64,000 bases of DNA from Theionarchaea archaeon (GCA_018992565.1 JACVGW010000004.1:1-64000), one strand, 5' to 3'; positions 45,121 to 52,981 are shown, counted from the stretch's first letter. The notes: a model not told the origin generated them from the sequence alone. Made by a program: numbers and translations.

Positions 45121-46684
45121 ATGGAACGAGATGCGATGATACACCCTGAGAGAATCCAATATCTAAATGCGAATCAGATAGAGCCCGGAAAGTATGTCAT
45201 GTACTGGATGCAGTCATCCCATCGCACAGNNNNNNNNNNNNNNNNNNNNNNNNNNNNNNNNNNNNNNNNNNNNNNNNNNNNNNNNNNNNNNNNNNNNNNN
45301 NNNNNNNNNNNNNNNNNNNNNNNNNNNNNATGCGATGATACACCCTGAGAGAATCCAATATCTAAATGCGAATCAGATAGAGCCCGGAAAGTATGTCATG
45401 TACTGGATGCAGTCATCCCATCGCACAGGATACAATCATGCCCTGGAATATGCTATCCTCATGGCAAATGAACTCCACCTCCCTGTGGTTGTCTACTTCT
45501 GCCTGACAGATGAGTACCGGGCTGAAGAAAGACACTACCGGTTTATGCTGGAGGGATTACGAGAGGTGAAGGCCTCATTAGAAGAACGAAATATCCAGTT
45601 CGTTCTCCAGCACGGCTCTCCGCCAGCTATGGTAGCTGAATTTTCTCGAGATGCTTCCCTCCTGGTGGTGGACAGAGGATACATGAGGAGAGAGCGAGAA
45701 TGGCGAACCCGTGTTGCTTCCCATGTCACGTGCCCCGTGATCCAGGTGGAGACGAACGTTGTGGTCCCGGTGGAAGCTGCCTCACCGAAAGAAGAGTACT
45801 CTGCAGCCACGTTCCGTCCAAAAATCGAAAGAAAGAAGGAGTACTACCTTGTTCCGCTGACAGAAACACATCCTGAACTAAGTTCAGTGACTATGGAATT
45901 CGACTCATTGCAGCTGGAAACCACCAGCGACATAAATTCTATTCTCCGCCGTCTGAATATAGGCAGAAAGGTACAGACATCAGCGTTCCACGGAGGCACT
46001 GAGCTCGCCAAGTCACACCTCCACCGGTTTATAGAGGAAAAGATTGACCTCTACCCTGAGCTCCGAAACGACCCCACTACAGACTGTCTTTCTAATTTGA
46101 GCCCGTATCTTCATTTTGGACACATATCTCCTGTATACATTGCATTGAAAGTCTCTGAGAAAGAAAGCCCGGGAAAGGACGCCTATCTGGAGCAGTTGAT
46201 AGTACGAAGAGAATTGAGCATGAATTTCGTTTTCTACAACAACCAGTATGACAGGATTGAAGGACTGCCCCAGTGGGCCCAGAAGACACTGAAAATCCAT
46301 GAGAAGGACCCCAGGGAGTATCTCTATACCGTTGAGGAACTGGAAGCTGCAAAGACCCACGATCCCTGCTGGAATGCTGCCCAGAGCCACATGGTCAAAA
46401 CGGGAAAAATGCATGGATACATGCGCATGTACTGGGGAAAGAAAATCCTGGAATGGAGCCCAACACCCGAGTCTGCGTATCAGACTGCTTTAGTTCTGAA
46501 CGATAGATATGAACTTGATGGCAGAGATCCCAATGGGGTTACTGGAGTAGCCTGGTGTTTTGGGAAACATGACAGGCCCTGGAGGGAACGACCCATTTTT
46601 GGCACGGTGAGGTTCATGACTGCTGAAGGATTGAAAAGGAAGTTCGATGTTGATGCCTATATAGAAAAAACTGCCGCATGGTAG
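45121..46684 (+). CDS. phrB: Class II CPD photolyase (interrupted by a probably spurious assembly gap)
   Basis: YWMQSSHR..YNHAL, SNLSPYLHFG, VRREL, HGYMRMYWGKKILEW, DGRDPNG, HDRPW.ERPIFG. Confidence 0.9.
45131..45428. other. 100-N gap flanked by a 99-bp exact duplication (45131-45229 = 45330-45428)
   Basis: Identical sequence on both sides of the N run. Confidence 0.9.
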
Positions 46685-46842
46685 CCTGATACTGCCCGGA
46701 CTCTTCTTCCATGCGACCTTTCTAATTCTCAGAGAAGTCTCAGTTCTTTCAACTCCCGGAAAATAGAAACGCTTAAATAATCGTGAATGGTATCCTCTTT
46801 GATAAGCCCTTACGCGCCAGGGCAGGAAAGGAGGTATAAGAA

Positions 46843-47913
46843 ATGAACCATTCCTGGAAAGTAGAGGTACTACTCTTGGCACTTGCTCTGATACTGCTTC
46901 AGTGCCACTCTATTAGAGGTGCTGCTGAGTTTGCCATAACAACTGACGTGAAAGACCAGTGGGAACCTGCAGTCTATGGTAATATTGTTGTCTGGACNNN
47001 NNNNNNNNNNNNNNNNNNNNNNNNNNNNNNNNNNNNNNNNNNNNNNNNNNNNNNNNNNNNNNNNNNNNNNNNNNNNNNNNNNNNNNNNNNNNNNNNNGAT
47101 GAGAGACATGGTAATATGGATATCTACGGGTATGACCTCTCCACAAAGAAGGAATTCCAGATTACAGCCAATGTGAAGGACCAGTGGGAACCTGCAGTCT
47201 ATGGTAATATTGTTGTCTGGACTGATGAGAGACATGGTAATATGGATATCTACGGGTATGACCTCTCCACAAAGAAGGAATTCCAGATTACAGCCAATGT
47301 GAAGGACCAGTGGGAGCCGGCCATTTATCAGGACTGGATAGCATGGACTGACAACAGACAGGAGAACTACGATATATACCTGTACAGCCTGGTCACCAGA
47401 GAAGAGACCCAGCTCACCACAAGCCAAGAAGACCAGTACAGTCCAGCAATTAATGGCGACATAATCACATATACAGACTACACTGGATCAAGCGAGGACA
47501 TTATTGCATACAATCATACAAAAAAGACCGTGACTGCTGTAGCTTCGGGTCCATATGCACAGTGGTATCCTGCAGTGTATGGGACTACAATAGCATGGAC
47601 ACAGGAGAAGGAGGATTCCCAAATTGGAACTCTCAACACTGATATTTACATGTACAGCCTGGACACCTCACAGGAGACACGTATAACATATGATCCCTCT
47701 GATCAGTGGGCACCTGATGTCCACGGAGACTACATTGTGTGGACAGACAACAGAGATGGTAACCTGAACATTTATGGGATCATTCTTTCTTCAGGAGAAG
47801 CGACACCATCTGAGCCAGAGTCTCAGAAGGGAGGAACTTGCCTGGGAACGGGACTTGTGGCTCTTGCTGTGACTCTTGTGGCCATCATGAGATACGGTTC
47901 CTGTTCACGCTGA
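46843..47913 (+). CDS. Surface protein with 42-aa beta-propeller repeats (Methanosarcina/TolB-like) and C-terminal sorting-like TM
   Basis: Repeats DQWEPAVYGNIVVWTDERHGNMDIYGYDL; signal peptide; GGTCLGT + hydrophobic + R tail; contains 100-N gap 46998-47097. Confidence 0.8.
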   Translation: MNHSWKVEVLLLALALILLQCHSIRGAAEFAITTDVKDQWEPAVYGNIVVWXXXXXXXXXXXXXXXXXXXXXXXXXXXXXXXXXXDERHGNMDIYGYDLSTKKEFQITANVKDQWEPAVYGNIVVWTDERHGNMDIYGYDLSTKKEFQITANVKDQWEPAIYQDWIAWTDNRQENYDIYLYSLVTREETQLTTSQEDQYSPAINGDIITYTDYTGSSEDIIAYNHTKKTVTAVASGPYAQWYPAVYGTTIAWTQEKEDSQIGTLNTDIYMYSLDTSQETRITYDPSDQWAPDVHGDYIVWTDNRDGNLNIYGIILSSGEATPSEPESQKGGTCLGTGLVALAVTLVAIMRYGSCSR

Positions 47914-47992
47914 GGTCAGTAGTCGAGACAGCTGCGTGCTGAGATCTACCCCAGATCAGCACAGAATGTACATAATGTATTTAAAGACTGAG

Positions 47993-48007
47993 TATAACTC
48001 AGTTATA
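47993..48007. promoter_or_regulatory. Palindromic operator TATAAC-TCA-GTTATA
   Basis: Between TATTTAAA box (47978-47985) and ATG 48008. Confidence 0.7.
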
Positions 48008-48817
48008 ATGTATCCTCCGTGCCTCATAGTTGTGGAGACCCTCCTGTACGATCTCAGGATGAGGGTCGCCCACATACTCAGGGATTCAGGGTTGACCCAG
48101 ACAGAGATTGCCCATACTCTCCATGTTTCACAGGCAATGATTTCCAAGTACCTCTCTTCAGATGTTGAACCTGCTTCTGAAAAAGATGAAGTATCGCAGG
48201 AGATTGCACGCATGATCATTCAGGGTAGGGACGAGAGGGACATCCTCCTGTATCTGTGCCAGACCTGTTTCAGATGGCGAGAAGGAGGTTCAACCTGCAG
48301 CCTCCATGACCTACCTGGATGCACAGTCTGTTATCAGCTTCGGAGTCCTGAGGTACTGGACGAAAAGCACAGAGTCATCCAGAATGTGAGAGAAGCGCTT
48401 TCAGTTCTTGAATCATGTCCGGGTGTGGCGAATCTCATGCCACAGGTCCATATGAACATCGCCATGAGTCTGGAACATGCGAAGAATCCCATGGAAGTGG
48501 CTGCTTTTCCTGGAAGGCTGGCACCAGTTCATGGAGTCGTCACAGCAGTCTCAGATCCTGAATTTGGCGCATCCCACCACTTGGCTTCTCTTCTGCTGAA
48601 GACAGGAAAACGAGCAGTGATCAACATCAGGTATACTGATATGCTCGCCTCTGCCCTCGAGAACCTGGGTATTACATTCTCGTATTCAACAGATGAATGT
48701 GGAGATGTCCTCATTGACACAGGAGGGTTTGGAATTGAACCCTGTGCGTATATATTCGGAAAAGACGCAGTGAATGCAGCTTTCACTCTTCGAAGGATTT
48801 CTCAAATTCTTGAATAG
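48008..48817 (+). CDS. thiR: ThiR-like regulator: HTH + thiamine-phosphate synthase (ThiN) domain
   Basis: MYPPC...GLTQTEIAHTLHVSQAMISKYL; LMPQVHMNIA, VAAFPGRL, PEFGASHHLA, INIRY, GGFGIEP. Confidence 0.8.
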   Translation: MYPPCLIVVETLLYDLRMRVAHILRDSGLTQTEIAHTLHVSQAMISKYLSSDVEPASEKDEVSQEIARMIIQGRDERDILLYLCQTCFRWREGGSTCSLHDLPGCTVCYQLRSPEVLDEKHRVIQNVREALSVLESCPGVANLMPQVHMNIAMSLEHAKNPMEVAAFPGRLAPVHGVVTAVSDPEFGASHHLASLLLKTGKRAVINIRYTDMLASALENLGITFSYSTDECGDVLIDTGGFGIEPCAYIFGKDAVNAAFTLRRISQILE

Positions 48818-49388
48818 TCTCAACCAGCCGGGTAACCAATAGCCGTGTCTCCTCAGTGGGCATTTCATCGCATGGTTTGTACTTGAACGCTTTTCTCATG
48901 AGGAGTGGAATCTCAATCTGAACCCCTTTGTCTCTGGTCAGGTTAACAACGTTCTTGGGATTCTTGGCAGAAAGATTTCTGCAGATTCCTCCGTCCTCGA
49001 TAGCATCTACCACATCAAAGTCTTCTCTGAGGGACTGCACAATGCTGCGCCTCAGCGCCTGATTCAGGCCGCCCACGCAGATGACGTTGCGTTTTATGAC
49101 ATGACCATGTATGGAAATTGCTGTAGACACGTGCTCAAGGAACTGTGCGAGCTTCTCTGAGTCCCTGGGGCTGATTTTGTTGGAGGAGATGTGAAACTTC
49201 CAGTCTCGCTTCTGGGTTCGGGGGGAGATGACATACAATGATGAATTGCTGTTCTGAGCGATGCAGACAGCAATCTGCTCTGTACCTCGCTCTATATTTC
49301 CCCCGTGAACAGCCATAACTCCCACTTTTCCCTGGAGGATACTGTATTCAATGACGTCCTGGTGGGTCAGAAGCTTCGCCAATTTCAT
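48783..49388 (-). CDS. Poly-gamma-glutamate hydrolase (PghP/DUF867-like) family protein
   Basis: AVHGGNIERGT..IA, FHISS, ISIHG, GGLN, NPKNVVN, GVQIEI. Confidence 0.7.
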   Translation of the reverse strand: MKLAKLLTHQDVIEYSILQGKVGVMAVHGGNIERGTEQIAVCIAQNSNSSLYVISPRTQKRDWKFHISSNKISPRDSEKLAQFLEHVSTAISIHGHVIKRNVICVGGLNQALRRSIVQSLREDFDVVDAIEDGGICRNLSAKNPKNVVNLTRDKGVQIEIPLLMRKAFKYKPCDEMPTEETRLLVTRLVETIQEFEKSFEE

Positions 49389-49487
49389 CGACGTCCCTAT
49401 GAAGAATTCTATATAAAGGTTTACGATTCTCTTTCTACATACGTACAGGGAGTACTGATAACGTCCGGTGCAGAAGTAAAAAGGGTA

Positions 49488-50474
49488 CTACCCACGACAT
49501 CTCTCTCTCAGCGTAGAAATCTTCTGGATGCGGAAGATGACGCTGTACAACTCCCTGTAAAATGAAGGTTGTTCCTGAAGCAGAAAAGAGCACAGATCAT
49601 GATACGCAGCGTCAGCATTCCTGGTGAGGGCGGTGGCAATAAAATCGGCTATTTCTTTCTTCAGGCTGACCTCTCTTAGGGAGGTGTGCTCACAGAGATC
49701 CTTGACTGCTGCTTCAAGAAGTGAGAGATGTTGGGCCAGAGAGAGGAGAACCAGCCCTCCCTTGTGAGAGACTATGAAGTTCATTGCCTGCTTTTTGAGA
49801 GAAAAAGACCCAAAATCATGAGATGGTTGATCCCAGAAGCTGCAGATGTGCCCTGCAAGGTTCAGATGGTCCAGGCATGATTTTTCTTCTGAGGTAACTG
49901 CGGGAGGATTGGAGTCCTGGCAGCTACTCGCTTCTGAAATGCACTCCATCCTGGTGGACAGGCACGTGCAGATGACTGCGCCTTCTACAATCCGCGAAAG
50001 CAGCTCCCTCGTCCTGGTAATGTCCTCTTCACTTTCAGCATGCCTGATGATAGTTTTTCCACTTACAGAAAGCAAGATCTCTTTCTGCTGAAAGTCAATG
50101 CGGGCGATACCCAGTTGCTTGGAGCACCGTACTGGCTCTGTCCAGGCTGGGAGGATGTCACATACTAGAGGGTCTAACCATCCATACTCCACCTCGCGGT
50201 GAGCCAGGTACAGTTCTGCCATCACCATACCTGACTCTGTAGAGCAGGGTTCAATGAGGGAAGTGGGTTTTACTTTTGTAGGTAAGGGCTGTATGGTCTG
50301 TATCAGCGTCTGCATTGACGCGATATCCAGTGAATAACCACTCTTCAACCAATGACACTTTTCCAGAGGTTCCCGGTTGAAAATGACATTGCGTAAAAAG
50401 GTAGAACAGCTTTGATATCCGCAGATCCCACAATCCTTCTGGGGCATTGCCTGATATGCACTGCAGAGGTCCAT
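49488..50474 (-). CDS. Fe-S-binding (PF04060-like) domain protein
   Basis: MPQKDCGICGYQSCSTF...LEKC N-terminal cluster; further IEPC and ICTC; downstream of sufS. Confidence 0.6.
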   Translation of the reverse strand: MDLCSAYQAMPQKDCGICGYQSCSTFLRNVIFNREPLEKCHWLKSGYSLDIASMQTLIQTIQPLPTKVKPTSLIEPCSTESGMVMAELYLAHREVEYGWLDPLVCDILPAWTEPVRCSKQLGIARIDFQQKEILLSVSGKTIIRHAESEEDITRTRELLSRIVEGAVICTCLSTRMECISEASSCQDSNPPAVTSEEKSCLDHLNLAGHICSFWDQPSHDFGSFSLKKQAMNFIVSHKGGLVLLSLAQHLSLLEAAVKDLCEHTSLREVSLKKEIADFIATALTRNADAAYHDLCSFLLQEQPSFYRELYSVIFRIQKISTLRERCRG

Positions 50475-50478
50475 GGCG

Positions 50479-51669
50479 TCACCCCGCAAGAGTCCTGGCA
50501 ATCTCTTTCACAACATCAACCATCTGTTCCACTTCCTGTGCAGTGTTATAACAGTGATATGACGCCCTGACTGTTCCTGGAACATGCAGTTTCTTCATGA
50601 TCGGGAGAGCACAGTGATGGCCTGAACGAACCATGATCCCCTGGGTGTCCAGTATGGATGCCACGTCATGAGGGTTCATGCCTTCCATGGTGAAAGAAAC
50701 TACACCTGCGTGGGTTTCCATCTCCTGAGAGCCGTACCAGGTTACCTCAGGGATTTCAGACAGTCCATCCAGGGTCAGTCTGGTGAGCAGCGCTTCCTGC
50801 CTCTGTATCTCGGAGAACCCAATTTCTTGAATATACTCCACAGCAGCTCCCAACCCAATGGCACCTGCAATATTGGGAGTCCCTGGTTCAAATCCATAAG
50901 GAGCATCTGCCAGGTCATAGCCTGTAAGGGAGACGTCCCGAACTGCCCCTCCTCCCAGAAAGCAGGGATCCATCTGATCCTGAACGCTCTTTCTCATGAA
51001 CAGCACTCCAATACCTGTTGGACCCATGGGGCCTTTGTGACCTGAAAAGGCAAGGAAGTCACATCCCAGCTTTTCTACATCCAAAGGGACATGTCCTGCA
51101 GCCTGAGCTGCATCCACACAGAATAATGCTCCTTCCTTTCTGGCCACTGCCCCGATTTTCTGCACGGGAAGAACAGTGCCCACTGCATTGGATATGATGC
51201 TGCAGGTGACCAGGTGAGCTCCCTCAATTTTCCCCAGCTCCTCCTCTTCCAGGATGCCAGGAGGTGAAGCCTCCATGATCTTCAGTGTAACGTCCCTGTC
51301 CTGTAATCTGAAAAAAGGCAGGAAGTTTGAATGGTGTTCCAGTTCTGTGGACACCACGATATCACCTGCATGAAAGGCCATCCCCAGGGCCACACGATTC
51401 AGTGCCTCCGTGGTGTTTGCAACAAAAATGACTTCTTCAGAAGATGCATTGATGAAATCAGCCACGTTCTCACGTGCCTCACTGAAGGCCCGGGAAGCTT
51501 CTTCAGAAAGAGAATGCACGCCTCTATGCACATTTCCCCGGTATTCCATGTAGTACCTTGTGACAGCCTCCACCACATGCCGGGGAGTCAAACTAGTAGC
51601 CGCGTTGTCAAAGTAAACGACCTTGCTGGTCAATGGAATATCGGCTCGGACCTCATCCGGAACCCTCAT
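50479..51669 (-). CDS. sufS: Cysteine desulfurase, SufS type
   Basis: YFDNAATS, EHHSN, DAAQ, FSGHK, RSGHHCA, RAS. Confidence 0.92.
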   Translation of the reverse strand: MRVPDEVRADIPLTSKVVYFDNAATSLTPRHVVEAVTRYYMEYRGNVHRGVHSLSEEASRAFSEARENVADFINASSEEVIFVANTTEALNRVALGMAFHAGDIVVSTELEHHSNFLPFFRLQDRDVTLKIMEASPPGILEEEELGKIEGAHLVTCSIISNAVGTVLPVQKIGAVARKEGALFCVDAAQAAGHVPLDVEKLGCDFLAFSGHKGPMGPTGIGVLFMRKSVQDQMDPCFLGGGAVRDVSLTGYDLADAPYGFEPGTPNIAGAIGLGAAVEYIQEIGFSEIQRQEALLTRLTLDGLSEIPEVTWYGSQEMETHAGVVSFTMEGMNPHDVASILDTQGIMVRSGHHCALPIMKKLHVPGTVRASYHCYNTAQEVEQMVDVVKEIARTLAG

Positions 51670-52541
51670 TCCATCAACTCAAACATTGCGTCAATAGCCT
51701 TCTTTGCTTTTCGAGCCACCTCTGGATCAACCATAACCATGTTTTCTACAGGTTTTTCTCTGAGAACGTATTCCACACTCTCACGTGTTATCATCTTCAT
51801 ATTGGGACAGACAGTGTAGGCAGAAAGGGCATGAACGATCTTTCCTGGGCACTCGTTTCTGATTTTGTGCAACATTCCATTTTCAGTTCCAATAATAACT
51901 TCTTTGGAATCAGTATTCTTCACGTAGTTGAGAATTCCCTCTGTTCCTCCCACGTAGTCTGCCAGATCGATGACCTCAGGTCTGCATTCAGGATGAACAG
52001 CCACCGTAGCCTGAGGATGGTTCTCCTTCATGAGGAGAACGTCTTCAGCCATCAACTGATGGTGTGTGGGACAGTTACCTCCTTCAGGGACTATTATAAC
52101 CTCCTTGTCCACAAACCGTTTGACATAGCTGCCCAGGTTCCTATCAGGGGTAAAGAGTATGGTATCTGTGTCCAATCGGGAAACGATGGAAACTGCGTTG
52201 GCTGAAGTGCAGATAGTATCTGAGACTGCTTTTACTGCGGCCGTGGTATTGACATACGCCACTACAAGAGCCCCGGGATACACCTTCTTGGCCTGGAGGA
52301 TATCCTCTGATGTGACTTGATGGGCCATGGGACATTGACTCAGAGGCTCTGGCATAAAGACCCGTTTCTCAGGATTGAGGATGGCTGCAGTCTCTGCCAT
52401 GAAATCGACTCCACAGAAGATAATGTCATTACATTCTGTTTCACGGGCGATCTGACATAACTTTAGAGAATCACCTGTAAGATCAGCTCTATCCTGCACG
52501 TCAGGTCGCTGATAATTGTGAGCCAGGATTATAGTATCCAT
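51666..52541 (-). CDS. nadA: Quinolinate synthase
   Basis: ILAHNYQ, GDS, FCGVDFMAE, CPMA, YVNT, CTSANA, PD.NLG, HPEC, GTE.G, CPNMK. Confidence 0.96.
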   Translation of the reverse strand: MDTIILAHNYQRPDVQDRADLTGDSLKLCQIARETECNDIIFCGVDFMAETAAILNPEKRVFMPEPLSQCPMAHQVTSEDILQAKKVYPGALVVAYVNTTAAVKAVSDTICTSANAVSIVSRLDTDTILFTPDRNLGSYVKRFVDKEVIIVPEGGNCPTHHQLMAEDVLLMKENHPQATVAVHPECRPEVIDLADYVGGTEGILNYVKNTDSKEVIIGTENGMLHKIRNECPGKIVHALSAYTVCPNMKMITRESVEYVLREKPVENMVMVDPEVARKAKKAIDAMFELME

Positions 52542-52542
52542 G

Positions 52543-52569
52543 GTATAACACCGTTATACTTATATATAA
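52543..52569. promoter_or_regulatory. Palindromic operator GTATAAC-ACC-GTTATAC plus bidirectional TATA box
   Basis: 52543-52559 directly upstream of nadA ATG; TTATATATAA at 52560-52569. Confidence 0.7.
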
Positions 52570-52588
52570 GCATTTCCGAAGGGGAGAT

Positions 52589-52981
52589 ATGAAGCCTCCC
52601 TGTGAACTGGCAGTGAAGGAGCTTCTTCCTTCCTTGCGAGCCGCTATCGTCAAAGAACTGTCTGAAAAATATCATATGAAACAGATAGATATTGCTGAAG
52701 CTGTTGGGATAACCCAGGCCTCAGTAAGCCAGTATCTGCACGTGGAGAGGGCGAAAGAGGATAGAATTACTCTCATAGAGGGGTTTGATGAAGGAGTGAA
52801 GACAATTGCAGAAAAGATAGCTCTCAATCGCATGTCAAAAACTGCTGTGCTTCACGCAGTGTGTGAGCTGTGTACAAGGATCCGAGAGTCAGAGGCATTC
52901 TGTCAGATCCACCAGGATATGGTAATGCTTGAAGGCTGCGATATCTGTAAACCCGCCCAGTGCAAGGAAGAACGAGGTTGA
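52589..52981 (+). CDS. Cys-rich HTH regulator, homologous to ThiR N-terminal domain only
   Basis: MKPPCE...MKQIDIAEAVGITQASVSQYL; C..C, C..H, C..C as in 48008-48817. Confidence 0.8.
   Translation: MKPPCELAVKELLPSLRAAIVKELSEKYHMKQIDIAEAVGITQASVSQYLHVERAKEDRITLIEGFDEGVKTIAEKIALNRMSKTAVLHAVCELCTRIRESEAFCQIHQDMVMLEGCDICKPAQCKEERG

Follow-up and report, generated by a model that had tools for sequence, protein, structure and literature searches.

A palindromic operator and a small Cys/His helix-turn-helix protein predicted to govern iron-sulfur assembly and cysteine supply in archaea

Several described repressors are close to the system considered here. IscR, a bacterial protein of the Rrf2 family, senses a [2Fe-2S] cluster and represses the iscRSUA operon. 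CymR of Bacillus and Staphylococcus, also an Rrf2 protein, is the master repressor of cysteine metabolism; it carries no cluster and works with CysK and O-acetylserine. SufR of cyanobacteria and actinobacteria and NsrR are Cys-ligated sensors of suf/isc or hcp genes. In archaea, ThiR is reportedly a thiamine regulator in which a helix-turn-helix (HTH) domain is joined to a ThiN domain and which uses palindromic operators at promoters. Here, we analyzed a stretch of 64,000 nucleotides (nt) from Theionarchaea archaeon (GCA_018992565.1 JACVGW010000004.1:1-64000; hereafter the window). It carries the palindrome TATAAC-N3-GTTATA at the promoter of a gene with ThiR domain architecture (thiR-like) and again between nadA and a divergent gene for a protein of 130 amino acids (aa), referred to below as the short regulator (Table 1).

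We consider it likely that TATAAC-N3-GTTATA is the operator of an archaeal regulon for iron-sulfur (Fe-S) assembly and cysteine/sulfur supply, controlled by an autoregulated HTH repressor of 110-130 aa that senses through Cys and His residues, probably by means of an Fe-S cluster. The genome of the window (G000; 2.8 Mb, 46.7% G+C, 88% complete) holds four exact copies of the palindrome and none of the same pattern read backwards, which served as the control for exact and mismatched counts. Base composition predicts approximately 0.28 copies, and the 762 occurrences of the half-site on both strands predict approximately 0.05 by our own arithmetic. Hexamer-N3-reverse-complement palindromes were also counted for each of the 384 hexamers with one G/C; they average 0.28 per hexamer, and a count of four is reached by two hexamers only. 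Within the window, four matches with at most two mismatches were found versus a mean of 0.97 in 100 shuffled windows, 5 of which also reach four. Besides the two exact copies in the window, a third (C8:13823) directly follows a TTTATAAAG TATA box, 16 nt before the ATG of iscU, in an operon for IscU (NifU_N) and IscS (class-V aminotransferase) that was confirmed by Pfam. The fourth (C32:1284) is located inside an unannotated open reading frame (ORF) of 371 aa.

The search was extended to 40 relatives of G000, sorted into families f1 to f5. Ten f1/f2 genomes (G000, three further f1 and six f2 genomes) were used to define the regulon, and all 30 of their exact copies were fetched with flanks and mapped to genes, whose identities were taken from Pfam and NCBIfam matches judged against the respective cut-offs. 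All three further f1 and all six f2 genomes carry 2-5 exact copies each, compared to 0-1 for the reversed control. Single copies were found in 7 of 17 f3 and 2 of 7 f5 genomes, and the exact palindrome was found in none of the seven f4 genomes. Of the f1/f2 copies, 28 adjoin a TATA box, usually without a gap, and lie no more than about 45 nt before a start codon; the remaining two are intragenic, namely the C32 copy of G000 and one inside an Rpo7-like ORF of G007 (C18). Scanned in this manner, as the original prediction had suggested, the genome and its f1/f2 relatives hold copies that are enriched and mostly borne by promoters.

The genes behind these sites were listed for each genome. An iscU-iscS pair follows an exact palindrome in all ten f1/f2 genomes (the iscU start of G002 was read from the sequence, with Pfam run on the iscS part only, and the iscU of G013 is cut by a contig end). 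At an exact site, nadA is divergent from the short regulator gene in seven genomes (G000, G001, G004, G010, G013, G016, and G019), and a SufS-type desulfurase gene takes this place in G003. A cysK/M-type cysteine synthase gene follows an exact site in G004, G010, and G013. Further targets are a NifU-C-terminal (nfu-like) gene and a TusA/YedF-like gene in G003 (the latter below its NCBIfam cut-off and cut by a contig end), aconitate hydratase and citrate-lyase genes as well as a small YHS-motif protein gene followed by an HMA P-type ATPase gene in G004, and an ABC-2 permease/DUF763 pair in G010. The thiR-like gene stands behind an exact copy in G000 and G002 and behind a copy with one mismatch in G001. 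In eight of the ten genomes the palindrome is at the short regulator's own promoter or linked to its gene. In f2 it abuts the regulator's own ATG, with a TATA box approximately 10 nt upstream, a placement that would correspond to the classic geometry of autoregulation.

Both operator copies of the window stand in promoters of the archaeal type. It had been predicted that the same palindrome lies between the TATA box and the start codon of thiR and of nadA, and both exact copies were confirmed there. At the thiR-like gene, the distance from the TATA-box-like TTTAAAG to the ATG would fit a leaderless transcript; the counterparts of this box are gtatttaagg in G001 and ctatttatat in G002. The position of operator copy 1 is occupied by TATAACATAGTTATA in G002 (exact) and by TATAATCCAGTTATA in G001 (one mismatch). 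Operator copy 2 falls in the TATA-to-start interval of nadA and, for the divergent short regulator gene, at the position of the B recognition element (BRE). The symmetric TATA element next to it is common to both promoters. Its center is approximately 24 nt from both ATGs (52541 for nadA and 52589 for the regulator), the element being 19 nt upstream of 52589, and by this geometry TTATATATAA plausibly serves two leaderless divergent transcripts. Beside the regulator gene, operator copy 2 is kept as the identical 15-mer in G001 and as TATAACGCCGTTATA in G003. The palindrome is conserved in the relatives at the orthologous nadA/regulator and thiR-like promoters alike. We rejected the idea that the palindrome is a mere pair of divergent TATA boxes: nearly every copy has a separate, canonical TATA box beside it, and the AAC/GTT part, which does not belong to a TATA sequence, is invariant.

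The distribution of the two candidate proteins bears on which of them reads the operator. Nine of the ten palindrome-bearing f1/f2 genomes yielded the short regulator, compared to only four (G000-G002 and G016) for the ThiN fusion, which turned up in six of the seven f4 genomes. By this comparison of genomes, the palindrome appears to track the 110-130-aa Cys/His HTH protein and not the ThiN fusion. A profile search of genome contigs with alignment A1 retrieved 240 relatives of the short regulator and 80 loci, at which the core TAAC-N3-GTTA was counted within 120 nt upstream of the regulator gene. The relatives belong to Theionarchaea/Methanofastidiosia-type metagenome-assembled genomes (MAGs), Thermoplasmata/Thermoplasmatota, Methanomassiliicoccales, Methanocella, Hadarchaeota, Bathyarchaeota, a Heimdallarchaeota MAG, Aenigmatarchaeota, Nanoarchaeota, and Methanosphaera/Methanobacteriaceae. 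The core site is present at 35 of the 80 loci, with a chance expectation of approximately 0.002 per locus. Genes at these distant core sites include cysK, cysE, NifS/SufS-type desulfurase genes, iscU, and a gene for a PF04060 protein directly after the regulator, as well as genes for SufC, SmsB/SufB-like proteins, gshA-like ligases, sulfite reductase, ThiF, and an HMA ATPase. As the distant core sites stand beside Fe-S and cysteine genes, the link between protein, operator, and Fe-S/cysteine supply therefore appears to be old and wide.

A different binder would follow from one suggestion of the original prediction, a regulon coupling the synthesis of nicotinamide adenine dinucleotide and sulfur mobilization to thiamine status. 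In such a regulon the HTH-ThiN protein would be the main binder and would tie nadA-sufS and iscSU to thiamine phosphate. The perfect copy that abuts the thiR-like ATG is what autoregulation predicts, a copy with two mismatches and the same TCA spacer is found at the thiW operon in G000 and G001, and the recognition helices of the two paralogues are similar (VSQAMISKYL in the ThiN fusion and ITQASVSQYL in the short regulator). We nevertheless regard a thiamine-centered regulon as distinctly unlikely. The six f4 genomes with the fusion have no exact palindrome, the palindrome follows the short regulator, Fe-S and cysteine genes are the targets in every genome, and in other phyla the core site is at the short regulator's own gene. 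The proposed connection through Thi4-type thiazole synthesis has no basis in this organism, because neither ThiC nor a true Thi4 was found in the 88% complete G000, where only FAD-motif matches (flavin adenine dinucleotide) were obtained for the latter. Salvage, not synthesis, seems to be the source of thiamine in G000.

The thiamine genes of G000 may still be touched by the same type of site. An operon at C8:48103-51096 (L191) encodes ThiW, a 171-aa protein without a Pfam match, an NCS1-type permease, and ThiD/ThiN. Between its TATA box and ATG lies TATTACTCAGTTTTA, which has two mismatches and the TCA spacer of the thiR-like operator, and G001 has its two-mismatch element in the same place. 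This suggests that the ThiN fusion reads a closely related site; 52 two-mismatch copies exist genome-wide, and the thiW site is therefore suggestive and not proof. The fusion probably reads a slightly looser version of the palindrome, both in front of its own gene and in front of the thiW salvage operon, and the perfect copy at the thiR-like gene would also be open to the short regulator. Since the thiR-like gene shares the operator and the thiW operon has a degenerate copy in front of it, cross-talk is possible. A second suggestion of the original prediction, a Cys-rich paralogue that senses Fe-S or metal and has ThiR-like DNA specificity with possible cross-talk, thus fits the evidence. Attempts to extend the G000 regulon through core or mismatched sites gave no convincing site other than that at thiW, and most matches are intragenic. 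Two unannotated ORFs of similar length (424 and 432 aa), at C113:20969 and C79:30022, each carry a two-mismatch copy that shortly follows a TATA box.

The short regulator belongs to a large family, with 246 relatives in the protein collection (E <= 1e-3) in addition to those in the genome contigs. Its signature consists of an MK(P/T)PCE N-terminus, a helix (G)ITQASVSQY, and then CxxC...C..H...CxxC in proteins of approximately 110-135 aa (alignments A1 and A2), and the protein of the window has all of these. In an alignment of 72 sequences, M1, P4, C5, E6, T42, Q43, S47, Y49, C92, C95, H108, C117, and C120 show no variation and C105 hardly any; T42, Q43, S47, and Y49 are residues of the recognition helix. 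Two claims about the pair of end genes were borne out. They have a common N-terminal domain (BLASTP E = 7e-11, 29% identity over 125 aa, covering MxPPC, HTH, CxxC, CxxH, and CxxC), and only the thiR-like product matches the ThiN model PF10120, in two stretches (positions 1-106 and 132-162 of 165). The description of the short paralogue as sensor-less has to be abandoned, as this protein is a member of a widespread family of stand-alone proteins that has an invariant Cys/His set of its own. The ThiR-like protein, whose Pfam HTH_3 match is below the cut-off, keeps PPC, CxxC, CxxH, and CxxC; Thermococcales-type HTH-ThiN proteins have neither the N-terminal Cys nor CxxC. The short regulator used as a query also matches the N-termini of HTH-ThiN ORFs of approximately 300 aa in f4 and f5.

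No Pfam or NCBIfam family covers the short regulator, and Rrf2 (PF02082) gave no match in either at E <= 0.01; nor was an Rrf2 protein among the matches listed by the fold searches. A sequence search of solved structures returned a single chance-level HTH match (E = 0.53). The AlphaFold2 model is all-helical, with a predicted local distance difference test of 85 and a predicted template modeling score of 0.80. Foldseek found no match in the PDB at E <= 1e-3 with this protein. In a wide search with VIA-align, Bcl-2-like helical bundles came out best (Z-score 5.8), a resemblance without meaning for a helical query; similarity to DNA-binding domains of the DeoR/SorC type is confined to the HTH part, residues 8-57 (Z 5.3, root-mean-square deviation 1.6 over 50 residues). 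A protein atlas search gave only unnamed archaeal HTH clusters. Prediction of a homodimer of the 130-aa protein (score 0.07, mark 0.42) counts neither for nor against dimerization.

In the mechanism that we propose, the short regulator would probably sit as a dimer on the DNA immediately 3' of the TATA box, covering the transcription start, and so keep the initiation complex from being recruited. Its own f1 promoter would differ in that the protein would occupy the BRE position. Operator copy 2 would thus be a single site for the repression of both nadA-sufS-PF04060 and the divergent regulator gene. At operator copy 1 the ThiR-like gene would be repressed, and iscU-iscS elsewhere in the genome. 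The signal would be read through the C-terminal Cys/His set, most likely as an Fe-S cluster, so that occupancy of the cluster would report Fe-S and sulfur sufficiency as with IscR. Sensing of a cluster is favored because genes for the scaffold and the desulfurase are the most constant targets, because the labile-cluster enzymes NadA and aconitase are included, and because a Thermococcales paralogue stands beside hcp/hemerythrin genes.

The nature of the signal is the point at which a serious rival has to be weighed. With the same operator and the same short regulator, the thiols might sense cysteine, sulfide/persulfide, redox, or a metal (Zn, Cu, or Fe2+), nearer to the logic of CymR or of a metalloregulator. 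The regulon includes cysK/M, cysE, gshA-like, sulfite reductase, and tusA-like genes, and a YHS protein together with an HMA P-type ATPase recurs in two unrelated lineages. CxxC pairs are typical of zinc sites, and the f2 proteins keep only three Cys. The constancy of iscU-iscS, the presence of NadA and aconitase, and the pairing of the Thermococcales paralogue with hcp or hemerythrin genes speak against such a sensor, and we judge it unlikely.

Several observations weigh against our reading of operator, regulator, and signal as an Fe-S-responsive system. First, G007 has the iscU-iscS site and no regulator was found in it even by profile, in a genome that is 94% complete; its regulator locus, which is missing together with the nadA-side copy, may be unassembled. 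Second, the core site is absent from the 120 nt upstream of the regulator gene at 45 of the 80 distant loci. Third, the core TAAC-N3-GTTA is not enriched in G000 (15 versus approximately 55 expected from composition by our own arithmetic), nor are imperfect copies, with 5 (one mismatch) and 52 (two mismatches) versus 12 and 133 in the reversed control; the signal thus resides in perfect 15-mers at promoters. Fourth, the f2 regulators are truncated and retain no more of the set than C5, C92, and C95 (in one of them also C105), yet their operator and regulon are the same. DNA recognition thus does not require the full Cys/His set, which leaves the ligand site uncertain. The Cys and His residues might serve to bind structural zinc, and for the sensor domain no informative match came out of the fold searches. 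Targets such as cysK, cysE, gshA-like genes, and the metal ATPase would equally fit sensing of cysteine, sulfide, or metal.

Finally, an identical TATAACAATGTTATA precedes a PadR-cupin-ArsP-permease operon in five f3 genomes (L085-L088 and L090). Four of these have no relative of the short regulator and the fifth, G014, has only a third type of paralogue described below, and the pattern alone therefore does not name its binder. An unrelated factor such as a PadR-type protein could in principle read the palindrome, with the link to the short HTH gene being incidental. We consider this most improbable, as the site and the gene of the short regulator are physically linked in 8 of 10 f1/f2 genomes and at 35 of 80 distant loci. 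As the binder in f1/f2, PadR was rejected, its close orthologues (at least 89% identity) being present only in those five f3 genomes. More distant PadR relatives are 55-58% identical in G004 and G013, on contigs without the exact site, and the f1 genomes have nothing closer than paralogues of at most 44% identity.

The features of the window are collected in Table 1.

Table 1. Promoter elements, operator copies, and genes of the thiR-like/nadA/short regulator block
Feature	Position	Strand	Description and support
TATA-box-like TTTAAAG of the thiR-like promoter	47980-47986	+	Read from sequence; precedes the palindrome by 6 nt and the ATG by 21 nt
Operator copy 1, TATAAC-TCA-GTTATA	47993-48007	.	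TATAACTCAGTTATA; exact; abuts the thiR-like ATG (48008)
ThiR-like gene	48008-48817	+	269 aa; HTH and Cys/His module fused to ThiN; PF10120, E = 2e-35, 122 bits (cut-off 25)
Gamma-PGA-hydrolase-like (poly-gamma-glutamate) gene	48783-49388	-	201 aa; last on the nadA strand; PF05908, E = 1.8e-29
Gene for a protein with an N-terminal "putative Fe-S cluster" domain	49488-50501	-	337 aa; downstream of sufS; PF04060, E = 7e-7
SufS-type cysteine desulfurase gene	50479-51669	-	396 aa; PF00266, E = 1.6e-128
Quinolinate synthase gene nadA	51666-52541	-	291 aa; first gene behind operator copy 2; PF02445, E = 2.4e-107
Operator copy 2, TATAAC-ACC-GTTATA	52544-52558	.	TATAACACCGTTATA; exact; 2 nt from the nadA ATG (52541, minus strand)
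Symmetric TATA element	52560-52569	.	TTATATATAA; read from sequence; 1 base from operator copy 2; common to the nadA and regulator promoters
Short regulator gene	52589-52981	+	130 aa; HTH and C-terminal helical Cys/His domain; only sub-threshold HTH matches in Pfam/NCBIfam

Further details of these genes are as follows. NadA scores 366 bits with NF006878 (cut-off 294). The SufS-type desulfurase reaches 418 bits with the sufS subfamily model TIGR01979, under its cut-off of 475. Membership of the gamma-PGA-hydrolase-like gene in the nadA operon is uncertain because of a 99-nt gap; the gene order around it is identical in G001. In L112, L113, L125, and L128, a PF04060 protein gene stands directly after the regulator and ahead of iscU or cysteine desulfurase genes. 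In distant lineages, proteins of this type measure 330-430 aa and again accompany the genes for the regulator, IscU, and cysteine desulfurases; they may be an unrecognized Fe-S assembly factor. Upstream of the block, the region 45194-47913 contains two ORFs with masked (N) stretches, of which the 356-aa one (46843-47913) has near-identical repeats of roughly 40 residues and a hydrophobic tail at its end.

Other paralogues of the short regulator have their own sites. In Thermococcales (f5; L025-L032, G034-G040), a paralogue of 128-131 aa with the helix HITQSAVSRYL keeps only C..H and CxxC. Its gene is divergent from a Prismane/hcp gene (L028, L029, and L031) or a DUF438-hemerythrin gene (L027), follows thiC in L025, and has TATGACA-N2-TGTCATA palindromes in the common promoter. 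Paralogues with an altered recognition helix carry different palindromes at their own promoters. In bacteria, the hcp/hemerythrin gene set belongs to NsrR, a cluster-based sensor of nitric oxide and redox state, and by analogy the f5 arrangement looks like an NsrR-type one. A third paralogue type, with the helix VTESA(V/I)SQYL, occurs at L017 (G014), L034 (G013:C46), L141, L143, L147, L151, L159, and L166, and has ACTTAACAATTGTTAAGT (TAAC-N4-GTTA) after its own TATA box. At Methanocella-type loci, N4-type and N3-type palindromes are found side by side upstream of the regulator. The exact motif was looked for at the f4 iscS-iscU promoters (L184-L188) and not found. These promoters have ATAAC directly 5' of the TATA box, followed in G021 by GTTAT after it (ATAAC-N8-GTTAT), which may be a re-spaced operator, and the genomes in which they occur have Cys-bearing HTH-ThiN proteins and no short regulator.

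A wider reading, which we offer only tentatively and hold to be possible rather than probable, is that small HTH-Cys/His regulators play in archaea the roles of Rrf2 proteins in bacteria. The branch of the window would act on Fe-S and cysteine genes as a master repressor of the IscR/CymR kind, with a near-universal TAAC-N3-GTTA site, from Asgard archaea to methanogens, the Thermococcales branch would be NsrR-like, and ThiR would be the same module fused to ThiN. The Fe-S and thiamine-salvage regulons of this genus might then be interconnected, given that the operators read by the two paralogues would be almost identical.

The archaeal control of Fe-S assembly (ISC/MIS and SUF/SMS) and of cysteine synthesis is not covered in the searchable literature. 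In a search that left most subscription journals outside its scope, we found no description of this regulator or of any regulator of archaeal ISC/MIS/SMS genes. The cluster-sensing regulators listed in the accessible part of a 2026 review are bacterial only (PMC13066941), and no regulator is named in the accessible part of a paper on the ISC system of M. acetivorans (PMC7585200). Repression of Fe-S and cysteine genes by sensing of clusters or thiols is of a known kind, and the archaeal system described here appears to be newly proposed. The family of the short regulator is without a characterized member apart from the fusion derivative ThiR. Our analysis yields a candidate protein, an exact operator, and a predicted regulon that are conserved across archaeal phyla, and the hypothesis is testable in cultivated species. 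It also places the DNA-binding domain of ThiR in a larger family and suggests how a paralogue with a swapped sensor can share an operator with its parent.

Among the known systems, IscR is similar to the predicted one in its iscS/iscU targets, in autoregulation, and in a palindromic operator that overlaps the promoter. From comparative genomics, the short regulator matches the IscR pattern of operators at the isc/suf promoters and at its own promoter, and both proteins have conserved Cys and one His available as ligands, the cluster of the short regulator being a prediction. However, the short regulator has no sequence relation to IscR, is all-helical with a C-terminal domain that lacks a clear match among solved structures, works at archaeal TATA/BRE promoters, and would control cysteine synthesis and nadA in addition. 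CymR is alike in its cysK-type and sulfur-supply genes, but the short regulator comes from an unrelated protein family. SufR and NsrR have other folds and belong to other domains of life, and the resemblance to them is one of regulon content only. ThiR has a homologous N-terminal DNA-binding module; the short regulator differs from it in having its own invariant Cys/His domain in place of ThiN and a predicted regulon of Fe-S and cysteine genes, not of thiamine genes.

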